NCBI GenBank assembly: GCA_963850305.1
Contig: CAWKKR010000008.1
Span: 736,001-800,000, forward strand
Length of the DNA stretch: 64,000 nucleotides
Reading direction: 5' to 3'
Origin: an uncultured delta proteobacterium
GTDB lineage: Bacteria; Myxococcota_A; Polyangia; Polyangiales; Polyangiaceae
Shown: positions 15,249-61,945 of the stretch, in pieces
How the letters are laid out: each line of letters starts with the position of its first letter
Numbering within the stretch: the first letter of the stretch is position 1
Notes under the pieces: generated by a model
Database searches by the model: none
Told to the model about the DNA's origin: nothing
What the model saw: the letters and a program-made list of their open reading frames with translations, nothing else
Position numbers and translations under genes: made by a program

Positions 15249-16679
15249 TCACCGGTGTCCGCCGCCGAAGTGACCGCCACCGCCACCGCCGAAGTGACCG
15301 CCACCGCCGCCGCCGAAGTGACCGCCACCGCCGCCGCCGAAGTGACCGCCGCCGCCACCGCCGAAGTGACCGCCACCGCCACCCGAGTGGAACGACGGGG
15401 CCGAATAGGAGTGATACGCGCCCCCGGAATAGGGGTGATACGCGGGCGCCGAATAGGAGTGATACGCGGGCGCCGAATAGGAGTGATACGCGCCGCCCGA
15501 ATACGGATGGTACACGCCACCCGAATACGAACGGTACGCAGGCGCTGAATACGAACGATACGCACCGCTCGAAAACGAGCGATACGCAGGCGCCGAATAC
15601 GAACGATACGCGGACGTCGAGTACGACCGCGGGGCTTCGATACTTCTAGGCGCGCCGACGGTTCGCGGCGTGGACGCGCGGTACGCGACGCCCGTCCGAG
15701 CGCCCGTGCCGACTCCACCGTGGAACGACGTGGCGACCATGCCGCTGCGCCCGAGGGGCACGCGAGCGACCGGATACGCCGCGCGCGGCACGCGAGCGAT
15801 CGCGAGCGGAGGGCCGCGGAACGCGAGCCCGGGCCTCCCGGCGAAGTAACGGTGCGTCGCGCCGCCGAGATACCGGATGTAGCCCGGGTTCCTCACCAGG
15901 TAGTGATACGGGAACGGTGAGAACAGATAAGCGCTCGGCAGGAACACCCAGTAGAATGGGGGCGGATACCAGACCGAGACGGCGTATCCGTCTTGCCAGA
16001 TGTAGTCCGGTGCGGCCGGCGCCCAGCCCACGTAGTCGTAGCTCGACGTCGGAACGCGCCACGTGACCCACGCGGGTGCGTAGCGGTCCCCGGGGATCCA
16101 CGACCAGCCGTAAGACGTCCACACCCAGCGCCCGTAGTGGAACACCACGTCGCCGAAGGCGAAGTCGCTCACCCAGACCCAGTCGTTGTTGGAGTCGAGC
16201 GCCCAGTGACCGTTCGTGACGTAGGGCGAGAAATTCTCACCGACGATGTTGCGATCGGGAACCCAGATGGTTCCGTACTTCGGATCGTTGACCCAGCTCC
16301 CGTACGGATCGAGCTGGGAGCGAAACTGATCGAGCGCGCGCGGGTCGGTGTCGGAGCCTTGCGTCGGATCCTCGGGCGGCGCCACCGCGGGGGGCTCCGC
16401 GGCGGAGGCGGGCTGCGTGGACGGCGGAATGCTCGGAGACGTCAGGACCGTCTCGCCGCCGGCATTCGGTGCCGTCGCGGGCGTTCCTTGCGGGGACCCC
16501 GAAGATCGGCTCCCTGCGTCGGCTTCGGCGCGGCAGGCGCGGCAGGCGGAGCGGGAGCAGCGGGCGGCGCGGCAGCGGCCGGACCCGCGGCCGCAACACC
16601 GGAAGCGGAAAGCACGAACATCATCGTCGCCGCGACGGCCCCCGCCGCGTGACGAGGTGAGCACACCAATCTCGACCAT
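15249..16679 (-). CDS. Secreted DUF6600-like Trp/Tyr-rich protein with low-complexity Tyr/Ser/His and Gly-rich tail
   Basis: LDPYGSWVNDPKYGTIWVP, PYVTNGHW, FHYGRWVW, APAWVTW; C-terminal (YxSYSAPA)n and (GGGGGGHF)5. The true start may lie slightly downstream. Confidence 0.7.
   Translation of the reverse strand: MVEIGVLTSSRGGGRRGDDDVRAFRFRCCGRGSGRCRAARCSRSACRACRAEADAGSRSSGSPQGTPATAPNAGGETVLTSPSIPPSTQPASAAEPPAVAPPEDPTQGSDTDPRALDQFRSQLDPYGSWVNDPKYGTIWVPDRNIVGENFSPYVTNGHWALDSNNDWVWVSDFAFGDVVFHYGRWVWTSYGWSWIPGDRYAPAWVTWRVPTSSYDYVGWAPAAPDYIWQDGYAVSVWYPPPFYWVFLPSAYLFSPFPYHYLVRNPGYIRYLGGATHRYFAGRPGLAFRGPPLAIARVPRAAYPVARVPLGRSGMVATSFHGGVGTGARTGVAYRASTPRTVGAPRSIEAPRSYSTSAYRSYSAPAYRSFSSGAYRSYSAPAYRSYSGGVYHPYSGGAYHSYSAPAYHSYSAPAYHPYSGGAYHSYSAPSFHSGGGGGHFGGGGGGHFGGGGGGHFGGGGGGHFGGGGGGHFGGGHR
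15255..15625 (-). repeat. Coding tandem repeats of 24-bp units (GGGGGGHF and YRSYSAPA)
   Basis: GCCGAAGTGACCGCCACCGCC-type units and GAATA(C/G)GA...ATACGC-type units are directly visible. Confidence 0.85.
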
Positions 16680-16846
16680 CCCATGCAGAGATCATGCAGC
16701 CTCGCGCGAGGCAACGCAACGGCCCGTGGAACGAGGGGAATGGCTGTCTCGATGATGCTTTCTTCAGAATCCGAGGATTCGAACGCGTGCACACTGATCA
16801 TGGGATGTCTCCGGTTGGGCGGCAGTGAGGTCTACGCTCACGGACG

Positions 16847-16961
16847 TTGCCCGCCCCCCGGGGCTTGCTTCGCAACCCCTCCCCCCGGTACTCGCTCCGC
16901 TCGCGTAGTTCCGCAGCTCTTTGATGCTTCAGGACGACGCTGCTCGTCGATGCGGAACTAC
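16847..16961. repeat. Single degenerate copy of the intergenic repeat family plus GTAG...CTAC hairpin
   Basis: GGCTTGCTTCGCAACC, CTCGCTCCGCTCGC and GTAGTTCCGCA...TGCGGAACTAC match 51541-51659. Confidence 0.85.
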
Positions 16962-32519: not shown

Positions 32520-32606
32520 GCAGCGCTCCTGGAATTCAGTGACTCGACGGCCGACGGGCCCCTTCTCGGTCAGGACGGGACCGGTGTCGCGTGGAACGCG
32601 AAGAGT

Positions 32607-32912
32607 CTCGGCGAGGATGCGTCCGTCCTCGGCCAGGATGCGTCCGTCCTCGGCGAGGATGCGTCCATCCTCGGCGAGGATGCGTCCGTCCTCGGCCAGG
32701 ATGCGTCCGTCCTCGGCGAGGATGCGTCCGTCCTCGGCGAGGATGCGTCCGTCCTCGGCGAGGATGCGTCCGTCCTCGGCCAGGATGCGTTCGTCCTCGG
32801 CCAGAATGCGTTCGTCCTCGGCCAGGATGCGTTCGTCCTCGGCCAGGATGCGTCCGTCCTCGGCCAGGATGCGTCCGTCCTCGGCGAGATCATGCACGTC
32901 CTCGGCGAGATC
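32607..32912. repeat. 21-bp tandem repeat, 13 copies plus degenerate ends
   Basis: Unit CTCGGC(G/C)AGGATGCGT(C/T)CGTC; internal palindrome TCCTCG-G-CGAGGA. Confidence 0.95.
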
Positions 32913-33025
32913 AGTGCCTCCCTCGCCCTCGGATCTGAGCGACCGGGTGCCTGGGTGACGGAATAGACCGGGACCCTTGGTTACAGGTCCGGCTCTGTTC
33001 AATCACAGATTCGGTGCTGTGGGGA

Positions 33026-48382: not shown

Positions 48383-51080
48383 TTGGCCCTCGATCGCGAG
48401 AAGATACTCCAGGCCGCCCAGAAGCATGTCGACAAGAAGAAGTTCGACAAGGCGATCCAGGAATACCAAAAGATCATCCAGCAGGATCCGACCGACGCAC
48501 GGACTCTGCTGAAGATCGGTGATCTGCAAGCGCGGATGGACGCGTACGCGGAGGCGATCGCCACCTATGACCGTGTCGGCCAGCACTACTCGGCGCAGGG
48601 CTTCGCCCTCAAGGCCATCGCCGTTTACAAGCAGATCCGCGAGCTGATCAAGAAGCACGTCCCTCAACTGGAGGACCGGTACGGGCACATCGTTCCGAAG
48701 CTCGCGACGATCTACACGGAGCTCGGGCTCACCACGGACGCCCTCGCCGCGTACGACGAGGTCGCGACCCGGCTACAGCGGGCCGGACGCGACCGCGACG
48801 CGATCGACGTGTTCCGCAAGATGGTGTCGCTCGACGCCACGAACCCGCTTCCTCATCTCCGCCTCGCGGAAGCCTGCTGCCGAGTTCAGGCGGTCGACGA
48901 AGCCATCGATTCGTTCTGGACGGCCGCCGAGCTGTTGATCCGTCTGAAACGGCGCGACGACGCTCTCAAGGTCGTCGAGCGGATCTTGCACTTTCGCGCG
49001 GAAGCCAAGTACGCGCGCGTCGCGGCTCAACTCTATCTGGAACGCGGCGGGCAACAGGACGGCCTGCAAGCGCTCGCGAAGCTGCAGCTCTGCTTCCAGG
49101 CCGATCCGAAGAACATCGAGGTCCTCGATCTCCTGTCCCGCGCCTTCGTCGCGATCGGACAAGCGCCGAAGGCCCTCGAAGTCAAAAAGGAGATCGCTCG
49201 ACTCGCGCAGGAGCAAGGGCGCGCTGACGTGTTCGATGAGGTGATGGCGTTCCTCCGGAACGCGGCCCCGGACGACGAACAGGTGCTTGCGCTGCTGCGC
49301 GGGCCGATGTCCGTGCGGCCCGGGGCAACCTCCCAGCGCCCCGAAGCCAGCTACGACGACGTCGAGTTGATCGACTCATCCGTACACCCGCAACCGAGCT
49401 CGCGGGCGGCCGTATCGATCGTTCCCGATACGTCGGATTTCGACTTCGACGACGAGCCGGTGTCGCGCGGTGCACTCGCGAGCTCCGTGCGGATAGACGA
49501 CGCGGAGCGGGACGTCCGCGCGGCGCGGCCGTTCATGGCGAGCTCCCCGGATGTCGTCGTCGTGGACGAGGACATCGAGGCCGCCGAGGAAATCGTCGGC
49601 GCGGACTCGGCCGATGCGCACGCACATGCCCGGAAAGCGGTCGTGGATGCCGAGTCGTTCCGCGGCCTCCGCCTCTACAGCAAGGCCATCGAGACCTTGC
49701 ACATCGCGCTCGAGATCGAGCCGCAGTCGCTCGAGATTCGCGAAAAGCTCCGCGACGTCTTGCTCGAAGCGGGCGATCGTGACGGCGCGATCGGCGAGAT
49801 GATTTCGCTCGCCGCGATCCACATCGACCGGGGGGCATTCGGAGACGCCGAGGCCGAGCTCTATCAGGTGCTCGAGGCCGAACCAGGACATCCGACGGCC
49901 TTCGAGATGCTCGAGCAACTCGCGGCGTATCGGTGGCGAGGTCGCGCCGTACACCGACGAGCACAATGACACGACCACCGCAGAAGTCGCCGAGCCGGAG
50001 CTCATCCGCGAGCCTTACGACCCCGAGGCGCCGCTGCCCTCGTACGACTTCGAAGAGATCCCGGCGGCCGCTGCGATTCGCGAAGACCCTGCGCACGGTC
50101 GGCGCGCGCTCGAGCAGGCGGATGATCCGTTCGAGACCATGGCCCGCGAGGCGCCGGCACAGGCGTTCCTGCGCAAGGTCGAGGACCTGGATGATTTCAT
50201 CGAAGAGCCAGAGCCCGCCGCGCCTCCGCCCCGGGCGTCACTCGCGCCGTCGGGCGTGGAAGGCATCGAAGAGGCGCTCGAGGAGGCCGAGTTCTTCACG
50301 CTGCGCGGTCTGGTGGACGACGCGCGTGCGATCCTCGTGGACGCGCTCGCGCGGGCACCGGGGCACCCGCTGCTCGTCGAGCGGCTGCGAGAGCTCGACG
50401 GCAACCCGGACACCGCCCAGAGCGGCACGCACGAACGGACCGACCCCGAGCAGGCGCCTCAGGAAGACCGCGTCTTCGACATCGCCGCGTCGCTCGACGC
50501 TCTCGACGAGCTCGAACAAGCCACCCGATCGTCGCGCCCGCCGACGTCACTGCGTCCCGTCGACGAGGTCGACGTCGACCAGGTCTTCGCGAAGTTCAAG
50601 GAAGGCGTCCGCGCGCAGATCTCCGACTCCGACAGCTCGACGCACTACGATCTGGGCGTCGCTTACAAGGAGATGGGCCTCTTGCCCGACGCCATCAACG
50701 AATTCGGCGTCGCCGCCCGGGATCCGAAGTTCGAGTGCACCTGCTACGCCATGATCGGGATGATTCAGCTGGAGCAGGGCCAGTTCGACGATGCCGCCGA
50801 GTCTTACATTCGTGGCCTCGGGGCGGCGCAGAAGACCATCGATCAGGAGATGAGCCTCTATTACGACGTCGGAAACGTGTACGAGCTGAAGGGGAACAAC
50901 CCCGAGGCCCTCTATTACTTTCAGAAGATCGCGCGCCGCGATCCCGGCTACCGCGACGTCAAGGACCGTGTCGACGCCCTGACCCCCGCCTCGGCGGCAA
51001 AGCCGACCGCCGCCAAGCGTCAGCTCCAGAGCGACGACGAGCTCGAAGCCGCCTTCGACGATCTATTCGAATCCAAGTGA
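48383..51080 (+). CDS. Large TPR protein, SgmX-like architecture (apparent +1 frameshift near 49930)
   Basis: N-terminal TPRs (KKFDKAIQEY, LKIGDL, GFALKAIAVYKQI), acidic linker, C-terminal THYDLGVAYKEMGL...YRDV TPRs. Confidence 0.75.
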
Positions 51081-51100
51081 ATGTCCGCGTGCCTACTGGG

Positions 51101-51601
51101 AAAGGGGGCCTTGCCCTTGCCCCCGCGGCTCGCTGCGCGACCGCTCCCCCGCCGCCTTCGGCGGGCTCGTGTTCGCAAGGGGGTCTTGACCCCCGCGGCT
51201 CGCTCCGCGACCGCTCCCCCGCCGCCTTCGGCGCGCTCGTGTTCGCAAGGGGGTCTTGACCCCCGCGGCTCGCTTCGCGACCGCTCCCCCGCCGCCTTCG
51301 GCGCGCTCGTGTTCGCAAGGGGGTCTTGACCCCCGCGGCTCGCTCCGCGACCGCTCCCCCGCCGCCTTCGGCGCGCTCGTGTTCGCAAGGGGGTCTTGAC
51401 CCCCGCGGCTTGCTTCGCAACCGCTCCCCCCGCCGCCTTCGGCGCGCTCGTGTTCGCAAGGGGGTCTTGACCCCCGCGGCTCGCTTCGCGACCGCTCCCC
51501 CGCCGCCTTCGGCGGGCTCGTGTTCGCAAGGGGGTCTTGACCCCCGCGGCTTGCTTCGCAACCGCTCCCCCCGCCGCCTTCGGCGCGCTCGCTGCGCTCG
51601 C
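51101..51601. repeat. 70-bp structured tandem array 1 (6 full units plus 1 partial)
   Basis: Units start at 51120, 51190, 51260, 51330, 51400, 51471 and 51541; consensus CCCCCGCGGCTCGCTCCGCGACCGCTCCCCCGCCGCCTTCGGCG(C/G)GCTCGTGTTCGCAAGGGGGTCTTGA. Confidence 0.95.
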
Positions 51602-51659
51602 GTAGTGCCGCGGCTCTTTGATCCCTCGGGGACGACGCTGCTCGTCGATGCGGAACTAC
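51602..51659. repeat. GTAG...CTAC hairpin element, homologous to 16905-16961
   Basis: GTAGTGCCGC...GACGACGCTGCTCGTCGATGCGGAACTAC. Confidence 0.85.
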
Positions 51660-51668
51660 TAGGAAGCT

Positions 51669-52901
51669 CTACGCCGCATGAGGTTTGATCTCGACTTCGC
51701 AGCCGAGGTCGGTCAAGCGGCGGACGAGGCGTTTGATGGTCTTGCTCTGGTCGCGGCGGTCGAAGTGATGGGGTCCGAGGTCGCGGTAGGGAGTGCCGTC
51801 GCGGAGCATGTAGAAGGCGGCGGTGAGCATCGATGCGGCGACGGCCAAGATCGCCTTCTTTGCTCCACGGCGGGACTTGAGCCGGAGAAACTGGGCTCGA
51901 AGGTAGCTTTCCTTCGTGCGCACCGCGGCCCAGGCGGATGTGACGAGCGTCGTCTTGAGCCAGTTGGCGCTCTTGCGGACGCGCGTCGAGCGACGCTTGC
52001 CGGCGCTCTCGTCGTTGCGGGGGCAGAGGCCGGCCCAGGACACGAGGTGTCCCGCAGACGGGAAGCGCGACATGTCGACGCCGATCTCCGCCACGATCAC
52101 GTTCGCGACGATGTCACTCACTCCCGGCATCGTCGTCAGGATCTCGGCGTGCGCCCGGATCGGCTCCAGCGCTTTTCCCGCAGCTGCATCGATCTCGGCC
52201 AGGGCCCCTTCGAGCGAGCCGATGACGCCGAGATGCAGCTTCAGCATGGCTCGGTGATGAGGGGTAACCCGCCCGCGCAGCGCTTCGATCAAGTCGGCCC
52301 TCTTCTTGCGCGCGGTACCGACCGCGAGATCGGCAAGGCGCTCGGGGTCATCTTCTCCGGCGATGAGAGCGGCGAGCATCGCCCGGCCGCTGGTCCCGAG
52401 CACGCTGGACAGGACGCTCGCGACCTTGATGTTCGAGTCCTCGAGCGTTTTCTGTATGCGCAGCGTGTGCTGGGCGATTTCTCGCACGAGCTGCGCGCGC
52501 GTTCGAGTGAGATCGCGCAGCTCCTGGATTCGCGCAGGAGGCACGAAACTGCTGCGGATCAGCCCGTGCGCGAGCAGATCGGCGATCCACGTCGCGTCGT
52601 TCACGTCGGTCTTGCGCCCTGGCACGTTGCGAATGTGCTGGGCGTTCGCGAGCACGAGTTCGAAGCTCCCTTCGAGCATGTGCCAGACCGGCTTCCAGTA
52701 CACGCCGGTGGCCTCCATCGCCACGTGGGTCACGCCGTGCTCCTCGAGCCATTCCGCCAGCTCGAAGAGGCTACGTGTGGTCGTGCCGAACGTTCGGACC
52801 TCGCGCCGCGTTGGTTCGCTGACGCAGCGCACGCAGGCAACGACGCTATCCTTGTGGACGTCGAGGCCCGCGCAACGGGGATACATGACTTCCATGACCA
52901 T
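51669..52901 (-). CDS. IS110-family DEDD recombinase/transposase
   Basis: GLDVHK, MEATGVYW, KTDVNDA, LCPRNDESAGK; AGGAGG RBS. Confidence 0.96.
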   Translation of the reverse strand: MVMEVMYPRCAGLDVHKDSVVACVRCVSEPTRREVRTFGTTTRSLFELAEWLEEHGVTHVAMEATGVYWKPVWHMLEGSFELVLANAQHIRNVPGRKTDVNDATWIADLLAHGLIRSSFVPPARIQELRDLTRTRAQLVREIAQHTLRIQKTLEDSNIKVASVLSSVLGTSGRAMLAALIAGEDDPERLADLAVGTARKKRADLIEALRGRVTPHHRAMLKLHLGVIGSLEGALAEIDAAAGKALEPIRAHAEILTTMPGVSDIVANVIVAEIGVDMSRFPSAGHLVSWAGLCPRNDESAGKRRSTRVRKSANWLKTTLVTSAWAAVRTKESYLRAQFLRLKSRRGAKKAILAVAASMLTAAFYMLRDGTPYRDLGPHHFDRRDQSKTIKRLVRRLTDLGCEVEIKPHAA

Positions 52902-52904
52902 CTC

Positions 52905-53100
52905 CTCCTTTCGGCGCGTCGAGAGGAGCCCTCGTCATCGAAGTCTACTAGGCGTGCTCCCGGATCTTTCGACCCGCGGTCACAATTCGGGGTGCTCGCA
53001 GGGCTCCGGGTCCATCTACTGAACGGGTTCTTGGCACCAAGTCACGGCCGACCTCGTTCCCGACGCCGCGGCAGGATACACTCGACTCCACCGTCCACGC
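52905..53100 (-). ncRNA. Putative bridge RNA of the IS110 element (boundaries approximate)
   Basis: Non-coding end contains TCAGTAG (53016-53022), matching the upstream flank plus core, and CCTAGTAG (52945-52952), matching the distal element end plus core. Confidence 0.6.
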
Positions 53101-53149
53101 GACGACCCGAGCTTCATGCTTCGGGGACGGCGCTCTCGCCGATGGGCAT

Positions 53150-54520
53150 CTACTGACATTCGTATGGACCGCACAGGATCAGCAAACAGGACTGCTTGCA
53201 AGAGCCGCTCGTGCAGTCCGTGCCCGTCGAGCAGCCTTTGCCTTTTGCACACTTGGCGCAGAGCGCACCGCCGCAGTCGGTGTCCGTCTCGTCGCCGTCT
53301 TTCTTGCCGTCGGTGCAATGCGTCCCGCACTGATTCGCGACGCCCCCGCCAGCGCAGGTCGCCGGCGCCGTGCAGCCCGGGCAAGTCAGCGTGCCGCCGC
53401 ACTTGTCGGAGATGGAACCGCACTCGTTGGCGATGCACTGGGTGAGCGGCGTGCAGCCGCAGATCCCCTCGTTACAAGGTCCGCTCGAGCAATCCGACGT
53501 CGCGGAGCACTTCTTCCCGGGTGCGCAAGTGGCGCCGCAGTTGCCGCCGCAATCCACGTCCGTCTCCGCGGCATTCTGCACGCCGTCCGAGCACGTCGCG
53601 GACTGACACGTGGACTTGGCATTAAAACCCGTCCCCTTCTTGCAGACGTCGCTCGCGCAATCGGTCCCAGCGCCGCAATCCTTGCCGTCCGAGCATTTGC
53701 TACAGACGCCTCCGCCGCAATCCACGTCGGTCTCCGAGCCATCCTTCGTGCCGTCCGAGCAGGTGCTCGGAGGGCCGCCGCCTGCGCCCGTCGTGCCGCC
53801 TGAACCCGTCGTGCCGCCTGAACCCGTCGTGCCGCCTGAACCCGTCGTGCCGCCTGAACCCGTCGTGCCGCCTGCGCCCGTCGTGCCGCCTGCGCTTGTC
53901 GTGCCGCCCGTCGCTGTCGCACCACCTGCGCCCGTCGCGCCGCCTGCGCTTGCCGTGCCCCCCGTGGCTGTAGTACCGCCCGCGCCCGTCGTGATCTCGA
54001 CGCACGTGGACCCCGATGGTTCGTATCCCGAATAACAACCGAACCCGCAAACGCCGCCCGCGCACTCCGGGTAACCGTTTTCGACCGTCGGACACGCGAC
54101 GCAGTGTCCGAGATCGCATCCGTTCGCTGGGCTCGGCGCCACGCACTCTCCCTGGCACTGCTTCTGCGTGGGGTCTGCGCACTCTCCGGCGACGGACCCG
54201 TCGGGCCCGGCGTCCCGAGCTCCCGCGGTGCCCGCTTCCAGACTCTGCAACGCACCGCCCGACGACGCGTCGCTGACGCCGCCCGCTTCGGTTCCTCCCC
54301 CGCCCTGCGTACCTTCGCCGCCCGCGCCCCCACTCGCGCCTACACCGGATCCACCCGTCGCTCCGGAAGCACCGCCCGAAATCACGCCGCCCTCGTCATG
54401 GCGCGCGCCGACGCCGGCATCGCCAAGAGCGCTGATCTTGCCTCCCACCGTCTCCCCGGTCGCGCACCCGACATACGGGGCGACGACGAAGAGCGCAAGA
54501 AACAAGCGTGATCTACGCAT
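53150..54520 (-). CDS. Cys-rich lipoprotein with GGTTGS linker and three CxDGxxxxxETDxDCGG repeats
   Basis: Lipobox YVGC; 18-bp coding repeats at about 53780-53990; stop codon TAG coincides with the IS110 junction. Confidence 0.8.
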   Translation of the reverse strand: MRRSRLFLALFVVAPYVGCATGETVGGKISALGDAGVGARHDEGGVISGGASGATGGSGVGASGGAGGEGTQGGGGTEAGGVSDASSGGALQSLEAGTAGARDAGPDGSVAGECADPTQKQCQGECVAPSPANGCDLGHCVACPTVENGYPECAGGVCGFGCYSGYEPSGSTCVEITTGAGGTTATGGTASAGGATGAGGATATGGTTSAGGTTGAGGTTGSGGTTGSGGTTGSGGTTGSGGTTGAGGGPPSTCSDGTKDGSETDVDCGGGVCSKCSDGKDCGAGTDCASDVCKKGTGFNAKSTCQSATCSDGVQNAAETDVDCGGNCGATCAPGKKCSATSDCSSGPCNEGICGCTPLTQCIANECGSISDKCGGTLTCPGCTAPATCAGGGVANQCGTHCTDGKKDGDETDTDCGGALCAKCAKGKGCSTGTDCTSGSCKQSCLLILCGPYECQ

Positions 54521-61400: not shown

Positions 61401-61505
61401 GACGGCCGGCAGCAGGGGCCGCGCGACTGAGCAACGTCCGGCTCACGCCGAGCAACGTCCGGCTCTGAGCGACCAAGAGACGTGCGTTGATGGGTCGGTG
61501 GCGCC

Positions 61506-61945
61506 CTAGGCAAGGGGCCTTGCCTGCCTTGACCCCCGCGGCTCGCTCCGCGACCGCTCCCCCGCCGCCTTCGGCGGGCTCGTGCTCGCAAGGGGGTCTT
61601 GACCCCCGCGGCTCGCTCCGCGACCGCTCCCCCGCCGCCTTCGGCGGGCTCGTGCTCGCAAGGGGGTCTTGACCCCCGCGGCTCGCTCCGCGACCGCTCC
61701 CCCGCCGCCTTCGGCGGGCTCGTGCTCGCAAGGGGGTCTTGACCCCCGCGGCTCGCTCCGCGACCGCTCCCCCGCCGCCTTCGGCGGGCTCGTGCTCGCA
61801 AGGGGGTCTTGACCCCCGCGGCTCGCTCCGCGACCGCTCCCCCGCCGCCTTCGGCGGGCTCGTGCTCGCAAGGGGGTCTTGACCCCCGCGGCTCGCTCCG
61901 CGACCGCTCCCCCGCCGCCTTCGGCGGGCTCGCTGCGCTCGCTAG
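61506..61945. repeat. 70-bp structured tandem array 2 (5 full units plus 1 partial)
   Basis: Units start at 61533, 61603, 61673, 61743, 61813 and 61883; identical units; CTAG at both ends. Confidence 0.95.

Follow-up and report, generated by a model that had tools for sequence, protein, structure and literature searches.

The window analysed here, a stretch of 64,000 nucleotides, contains an IS110-family element whose left end resembles a hairpin that lies directly behind the element's right end and recurs at a distance from it, which raises the question of why an insertion sequence (IS) and a dispersed non-coding repeat should look alike. The initial annotation had offered two answers: either the dispersed GTAG...CTAC hairpins are non-autonomous derivatives of IS110 ends, or the IS end mimics its target so that the 3′ UTR of the host gene is regenerated upon insertion. 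Our analysis supports the former, and more strongly than that annotation had put it, because the element to which the hairpin belongs has both IS ends and shows precise insertion with empty alleles in the source genome. The likeness of hairpin and IS end is explained by the hairpin forming the head of a miniature that lacks genes and has both IS-type ends. We consider it very probable that this miniature is a non-autonomous, MITE-like element without terminal inverted repeats, derived from both ends of an IS110 subfamily around GC-rich units, and moved by the recombinase and its RNA. The features concerned are collected in Table 1.

Table 1. Features of the IS110 element, its predicted guide RNA and the miniature family in the window.
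Feature	Position	Strand	Remarks
IS110-family element	51656..53149	-	1494 bp including the right AG core; the genome has eight such copies, nearly identical
IS left end (A-type box)	53109..53152	-	Stretch flagged in the initial annotation
IS right end (B-type box)	51656..51669	-	Terminates in CCTAGTAG; same in 8/8 copies
DEDD recombinase gene	51669..52901	-	410 aa; assigned by Pfam, NF033542 and motif residues
Predicted bridge RNA	52916..53066	-	Limits are those of the outer stem, with inferred transcript ends; a TAnnnT hexamer (53078-53073) lies before it
Short target guide (predicted)	53040..53047	-	Complements the top strand, core AG and right flank
Long target guide (predicted)	53014..53023	-	Letters equal the left junction plus two handshake-like bases, which equal the first two IS bases
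Candidate short donor guide	52984..52992	-	Read by eye
Long donor guide (predicted)	52943..52952	-	Letters equal the IS right end
Upstream host gene	53150..54520	-	456 aa; stop codon is the TAG of the IS left junction
Non-autonomous element	51093..51655	-	563 bp; made up of a head, seven GC-rich units of 70 bp and a right end
Head hairpin GTAG...CTAC	51602..51659	-	A'-type box plus a closing arm absent from the IS end
Miniature right end (B'-type box)	51093..51106	-	One mismatch to the family consensus
Stand-alone copy	16832..16960	-	Intact head, one unit, degenerate right end
Headless copy	61503..61941	-	Six units and a worn right end; begins directly after a TAG stop

The likeness itself is secure. 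The three minus-strand strings from which it was first proposed are letter-perfect in the window (53152-53111, 51658-51616 and 16960-16919), and the IS end agrees with either hairpin copy in 32 of 43 columns. The observed scores of 50 and 47 were not attained in any of 5000 dinucleotide shuffles (shuffle means 10.7 and 9.6); among 20000 random windows of contig C8, a matching score was found once for the first alignment, which may be a family member, and never for the second. A profile built from the hairpins alone recovers all eight IS left ends genome-wide (E 0.004-0.047). The hairpin makes up only the opening ~57 bp of a longer element (51655-51093). Nor has the IS displaced it, as the initial annotation had it: the hairpin is intact and directly follows the IS right end.

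The recombinase matches PF01548 and PF02371, both above the Pfam cut-off, as well as NF033542 with 282.8 bits (cut-off 140) and the solved IS621 protein at E 1.4e-12. Its motif positions are occupied by D14, E63, D99, D102 and S299, pointing to a RuvC-like DEDD enzyme with a catalytic serine. The gene is flanked within the IS by 248 bp of non-coding DNA at the left and by 13 bp after the stop codon at the right. From the left, the order is core AG, a short stem-loop, CCCCGA and GAAGCTC, to which GAGCTTC near the other end of the IS, the right one, is the inverted partner. The source genome (G000; 6.26 Mb, 11 contigs, 95% complete) holds eight copies of this resident IS, and no other IS110 gene was found in it. 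The copies vary at ten alignment columns, one insert aside; all eight start after AGTAG, finish in CCTAGTAG and have the AG core at both junctions, with no terminal inverted repeats. A hairpin head lies directly behind seven of the eight.

Several further observations were made on the IS copies and their surroundings. A 2-base marker at element position 654-655 divides the copies by contig, with four on C8 and four elsewhere, for which local hopping, conversion or an assembly effect are options. The protein of the upstream host gene is Cys-rich and Gly/Thr-rich and has no Pfam match, and the DNA repeats of its domains form arrays elsewhere in the genome. Tandem repeats at 32523-32963 and 15259-15626 of the window, with 21-bp and 24-bp periods, are unrelated to the IS or the hairpin.

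A profile search of G000 for the head gave 92 matches, of which 75 heads were kept after dropping the eight IS ends, matches below 19.5 bits and three without an intact left end. These correspond to 74 loci or fewer, as two matches on C11 (256319-256348) are the arms of one perfect palindrome, formed by two heads joined head to head. A right end resembling that of the IS110 itself closes 44 of the 75, taking the form CCCTTTCCTAGTAG (its CCC imposed by the search pattern) against GAGCTTCCTAGTAG in the IS. Core position -2 is A in 33 of these 44 right ends and position -1 is G in 33; the final A or G is missing in 11, and the other 31 heads have no recognisable right end. The elements are 95-630 bp long with 0-9 internal units, and G000 contains 218 GC-rich units spread over 83 loci, of which 28 lack a full head. 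Heads differ from one another by ~10 of 72 bases on average, while their identity with the IS end has a median of 27/39 over the 75 heads and reaches 31/39 in the best head of this genome. The two ends of the miniature are unlike each other, and neither the terminal inverted repeats nor the target duplication of a classical MITE was found. In the commonest subtype the sub-terminal inverted pair is imperfect (CAAAG with CTTTC in 18/37), and the boundaries of the 70-bp units do not retain the donor motif.

Seven heads stand behind the IS, 58 have an unrelated left flank and 10 follow another right-end-like sequence; the junction in these head-to-tail tandems is the same as that between IS and miniature. 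The left flanks of the 58 non-tandem copies (T33 C30 A47 G50 T48 A55 G54, each of 58) have the consensus TCAGTAG, following the target guide of the predicted RNA. The flanks beyond 16 intact right ends start with A (nine), C (five) or G (two) and never with T, the base that the short guide predicts, so most miniatures misfit the resident RNA on this side. Since the empty allele reads TCAGTAG and the new right junction CCTAGTAG, the AGTAG shared by both junctions comes from donor and target. A core at the first AG of AGTAG had been considered, as right junctions vary in the last three bases, and was rejected: homologues share the last AG only. Several copies have the same AGTAG variant (AGCAG, GGTAG, AGTAC or AGGAG) at both junctions, for example C6:104327(-), C5:367794(+), C8:1022309(+) and C1:546052-546195(+), and others have it on one side only; exchange or repair may span the five bases shared by donor and target, beyond the 2-base core.

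Outside the source genome, three of six congeners carry the family at 80-93% identity, and 6 of 34 other relatives gave single weak matches. Many heads are present in congener G002 (88% complete), where the search for an IS110 gave none; a head of congener G004 has a perfect run of 27 nt with the IS end of the window (32/39 overall). At the orthologous site, the downstream gene was found in five of the six congeners and a motif search located the stop in L058 only. That locus was rejected as an empty allele: no element lies within 170 bases after the stop, but the neighbourhood differs. No chromosomal empty allele for the miniature was found in the data examined. The element region (51000-53300) gave no Rfam match for a small RNA at E 0.1, and a sigma-70-type promoter scan found 0 sites. 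A terminator scan gave two sites, both on the plus strand and as in shuffles, with none on the minus strand of 51000-53250.

Another type of head (GGTCCAGCCGATTCACGG-like) was also noted: in ~9 of 15 matches to its motif it is followed by these GC-rich units and then by a different tail, at sites including C1:409727(+), C4:424800(+), C4:429520(+), C7:1082156(+) and C11:64617(+). Perhaps this is a second miniature family that shares the GC-rich unit.

The best evidence for mobility comes from inside the IS itself. An identical 130-bp miniature, complete from head to right end, lies in the left region of the IS copies at C8:718137 and C5:149081, behind TCAGTAG at the AG core. Two of the eight IS copies are thus filled and six empty, with precise insertion at the core, and the filled/empty pair defines both ends of the miniature. 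As this copy sits in young IS DNA with exact core junctions, at least one miniature insertion postdates the resident IS. The first 60 bases of the nested copy occur nowhere else in the genome, for which reason a single insertion event appears likelier than two, despite the hosts differing at the 2-base marker.

The left non-coding region of the IS, in which the nested copy lies, holds a predicted bridge RNA with guides that covary with both junctions. The consensus fold of 20 homologues has an outer stem and two loops, with 27 pairs, 16 of them showing compensatory changes; in the RNA of the window folded alone, the closing stem of the target loop did not form (pair probability 0.01). Guides were parsed at 29 of 43 loci, leaving 13 rows per test after L004 (mis-anchored), partial junctions and duplicates were dropped. 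In loop 1 the long guide agrees with the left flank in 63 of 65 non-core bases (19.8 expected), and in loop 2 the long guide agrees with the right end of the IS in 63 of 65 bases (30.7 expected), with 0/20000 permutations in either case, although permutation P values, here and below, are overstated because the homologues are related and not independent. The two bases after the first guide equal the first two IS bases in 26 of 26 cases (20.6 expected; 14/20000), with 3 of the 13 rows not being TT. Handshake guides of this kind occur in IS621, according to the available text of PMC11208158.

The short guide lies 5′ of the loop 1 hairpin, and its pairing with the right flank holds in 24, 19 and 18 of 37 loci at positions +1 to +3, with about 10.5 expected (10.8 at +1). 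For this test 46 of 122 loci were parsed, 37 remaining after de-duplication; of the three registers tried, one was positive (10/20000) and two negative, and the chosen register was reused on a set containing those loci. A 5-base inverted pair between the ends also covaries, in 94 of 95 cases (79.6 expected; 19 loci). The miniature starts with TT and the resident IS with AT, so the handshake-like AT of the resident RNA fits the IS and not the miniature. By eye, the candidate short donor guide pairs better with AG-TT-C, as in the miniature head, than with AG-AT-G, the end of the IS itself.

The site of the nested copy is the long target guide (53023-53014 in the window), after the AG at 53016. 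Since this guide would pair with the bottom strand it carries the letters of the target, and its own DNA is therefore a potential target. The right flank base at the site is A, and donor-like letters precede the closing stem of the target loop after the insertion. An apparent second case of insertion into an IS110's own guide gene is seen on one contig (L099:1-130, 1 of the 122 homologous loci), where an IS110 of the subfamily begins directly after the long target guide of a like copy. An RNA so interrupted need not be inert: in IS621 the DBL alone can drive excision and insertion, as described in the accessible portions of PMC13626964 and 10.64898/2026.08.31.748434, and we conjecture that a donor-only RNA could still drive circles and tandem insertion here.

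The direction of the likeness was addressed with 122 homologous loci (41 from genomes, 80 from metagenomes and one from a congener). In an alignment of 20, the left ends of related IS110s read AG, TT, three bases, CAT, a stem-loop, a CCCCGA-like stretch and ATGAA(A/G)C. The corresponding profile matches 64 of the 122 loci, having been built from 19 sequences of the same alignment and with many contigs ending early; named carriers are Alpha- and Betaproteobacteria, Eisenbacteria and Vulcanimicrobiota. A head behind the IS occurs at one of the 122 (L062), an independent contig with a 95% identical recombinase that repeats the same junction of IS and head. Elsewhere, a different short module with a like right end follows the IS in L074, and a like right end precedes it in L107. 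Because the motif heads related IS110s of other phyla that lack the repeat, the likeness would run from IS to miniature and not by mimicry; the motif belongs in the first place to IS ends, and host-UTR mimicry need not be assumed.

When the profile was built from IS ends of other organisms, one miniature head ranked first, followed by the eight IS ends, and 4 of the 75 heads were recovered in all, at E 0.04 and worse. The heads start with TT, like most homologues, and are far more diverged than the IS copies, from which the miniature family appears to predate the resident IS copies and probably owes most of its spread to an earlier relative with a TT left end.

Some homologous loci merit separate mention. 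In the Dehalococcoidia records L006-L009, L025 and L031, related IS110s with an AA(T) core are located within a host repeat that is palindromic and conserved, and two of these IS110s form a tandem; their guides match these junctions. In L019 (1446-1540), an IS110 left-end motif nearly abuts the recombinase gene, with no RNA region.

How the miniatures relate to the distribution of the IS was considered next to the genomic target sites. TCAGTAG occurs 68 times in the genome: 45 times empty, ten times before a head (two of them nested), seven times before an IS and six times in intact guides. Only two of the 45 empty sites are followed by TT or TC and so pairable with the resident short guide, TT by one wobble as judged by eye. 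The left junction of the miniature (TCAGT-AG-TT) matches both target guides and would thus offer a full target at which the IS lands, in keeping with the seven of eight copies found there. The seven IS-adjacent heads differ by 0-9 of 72 bases, far more than the IS copies do, which favours insertion at existing heads. They are also more alike than random heads (mean 4.4 vs 10.0, P 0.00015) or well-kept copies (6.8, P 0.007) and share two private variants in mosaic, so that composite moves or conversion are indicated as well.

By a crude test (at least 100 codons, GC3 of at least 0.78), a gene-like frame uses the junction TAG as its stop at 17 of 50 left junctions, compared with 3 of 45 empty TCAGTAG (Fisher P 0.001) and 50 of 611 empty sites; among the IS copies it is so at four of eight. 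This tie to gene ends may arise because TAG is part of the target and such insertions leave the gene whole, in which case the excess would reflect selection for harmless sites.

REPs start with GTAG, REPINs are dispersed intergenic hairpins in arrays, and IS621, ISPpu9 and ISPpu10 target REPs. The repeat might accordingly be a host family of the REP/REPIN type, with a GTAG hairpin and BIME-like arrays, moved by a RAYT or by recombination and merely targeted by the IS110. The GTAG...CTAC hairpin, the intergenic arrays with their headless loci and the position of seven of eight IS copies at a head would all suit such a family, as would the second head type, whose presence before the same units at some loci indicates that the GC-rich unit may be an older host repeat. 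Yet no match to PF01797 (RAYT, Y1 HUH) was found in the 95% complete G000, with 6 of 14 genomes positive in the control. The element also terminates in the right-end motif of the IS and has inserted precisely into IS DNA, unlike a passive target, and its head is the left-end motif of distant IS110s. We therefore hold a host origin of the whole repeat to be very unlikely. The converse idea, that the IS left end evolved to mimic the host 3′ UTR hairpin and so keep the terminator or stability element of the upstream gene, draws on the excess of TAG stops at the junctions and on ISPpu9, whose A-box palindrome is like that in its REP target in the accessible text of PMC12288879. Against this, the same text describes the palindrome as dispensable for circles, the long hairpin has a closing arm that is missing from the IS end, no terminator-like site lies on the minus strand of 51000-53250, and the motif is present in 64 of the 122 homologous loci, only one of which has this head behind the IS. 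Regeneration of a host UTR by a target mimic, as the initial annotation had alternatively envisaged, is in our estimation extremely improbable, the motif being common to related IS110s of several phyla without such a flanking repeat.

An origin from IS110 could also be accepted and present mobility denied, in that the miniatures would be immobile relics and the nested and IS-adjacent likenesses products of homologous recombination or gene conversion. The divergence of the heads, the misfit of their right flanks to the resident short guide, the mosaic of private variants next to the IS and the occurrence of the nested copy on two IS haplotypes can be read in this way. The nested insertion speaks against it, as it has exact core junctions in an IS that is otherwise young (ten variable columns besides the insert), and the assembly holds no other IS110 gene; we judge a wholly relic family to be unlikely. 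The right-flank misfit, the missing right ends and the state of G002 fit a lost relative or one-sided matches, and also leave room for a mostly relic family.

Our preferred reading thus remains that of a miniature with both IS110 ends that is mobilised by an IS110 recombinase. From the observed ends, core, copy numbers, filled/empty pair and covariation of guides with junctions, we infer an RNA, circles, a responsible recombinase and an order of events. By analogy with IS621 and ISPpu9, the recombinase and bridge RNA would join the miniature's right end with its left end at the AG core into a circle, which would then be inserted at sites of the TCAGT-AG type. IS end and hairpin would be alike by common descent and by a shared donor function, IS and miniature may also move or recombine as one unit, and in the nested case the miniature would have landed in guide DNA that is itself a target. 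In public reads, no circles, transcript or population-level empty site were seen. A search for sequencing runs gave at least five, none of them with half of the query words, and no RNA run among those listed, and four runs examined as contigs gave patchy cover and no joint of IS right and left ends; one contig of X5 has a junction of right end and head, compatible with a circle or a tandem.

A more far-reaching possibility, which we put forward tentatively and rather doubt, is that the miniature is a hyperparasite that steers its bridge recombinase doubly. By inserting at TCAGTAG it would each time create a full match for the resident target loop and draw the IS to the miniature as to a landing pad, and insertion into the guide gene would break or rewire the target loop and leave the donor loop whole, giving short-target IS110s a built-in brake. 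If true, natural bridge systems attack their own guide DNA and hitch-hikers can regenerate targets, which would bear on the limits to IS110 copy number and on a class of off-targets in bridge editing, namely the guide-expression cassette. In any case, the family supplies minimal donor ends of natural origin, together with 75 insertion sites, for a subfamily of bridge recombinases in which the guide order is reversed.

The closest known system is ISPpu9/MITEPpu9 of Pseudomonas putida KT2440, in which the ssr9 module is registered as MITEPpu9 and circles have been detected, according to the available text of PMC12288879. Judged by layout and by the same portion of that source, both systems have the arrangement A-tnp-B followed by A'-module-B' with an AG core at both ends, an inverted repeat in the A box and a short B box, and in both the IS is found on its own or with a module, and modules are found singly or in tandem. 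MITEPpu9 comprises eight modules around a small-RNA gene in REP targets, whereas here there are 75 heads, a variable tandem-array cargo and no REP target. The divergence between A and A' is also larger here, the family extends to three of six congeners, and a module lies inside the bridge RNA gene. The MITEPpu9 type is thereby extended from eight copies in one Pseudomonas lineage to a family of ~75 copies in several species of one genus. In a literature search over titles and the starts of abstracts, with most subscription papers and ISfinder outside its scope, PMC12288879 was the one research paper found on an IS110 with such a miniature (supplements may hold more), and no fitting paper was found on myxobacterial IS110 miniatures or on insertion of an IS110 into its own guide. 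The parts seen of 10.64898/2026.03.19.712850 and 10.1101/2025.10.25.684509 contain nothing decisive for the miniature. A gene-less IS110 hitch-hiker with both ends is therefore known, and what is added here are the landing sites that the miniature would offer to the IS and its insertion into the DNA of that IS's guide RNA.

Among other systems, the dispersed intergenic hairpin arrays targeted by an IS110 recall REP/REPIN with RAYT and the REP-targeting ISPpu10, as far as the available text of 10.64898/2026.03.19.712850 goes, but no RAYT was found here and the repeat bears IS110 donor ends. Tandem non-coding units beside IS110 genes are described in the accessible part of 10.64898/2026.08.14.744561, where insertion is said not to regenerate the target. 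Recombination at half-matches and in-place expansion of IS110 loci, as presented in the parts seen of that work and of 10.64898/2026.08.31.748434, could explain the tandems and the misfit right flanks. With IS621, as described in the available portions of PMC11208160, PMC11208158 and PMC13626964, the resident IS shares a DEDD recombinase, an upstream non-coding RNA region with a target loop followed by a donor loop, a 2-bp core and two handshake-like bases that match the partner DNA. The position of the RNA upstream of the gene is likewise that of the IS110 group (PMC11208160, in the part available). The order of the guides is different: the guide for the top strand comes first in each loop, which matches the IS1111 seekRNAs in the accessible text of PMC11187229, and to obtain the IS621-type order, with the left guide 5′ of the right on the gene strand, one would have to read the DNA sites on the opposite strand. 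Unlike in IS621, as far as those portions go, the core is AG on the gene strand (CT on the other), and the right-end motif has its inverted partner within the left end, ~30 bases in.
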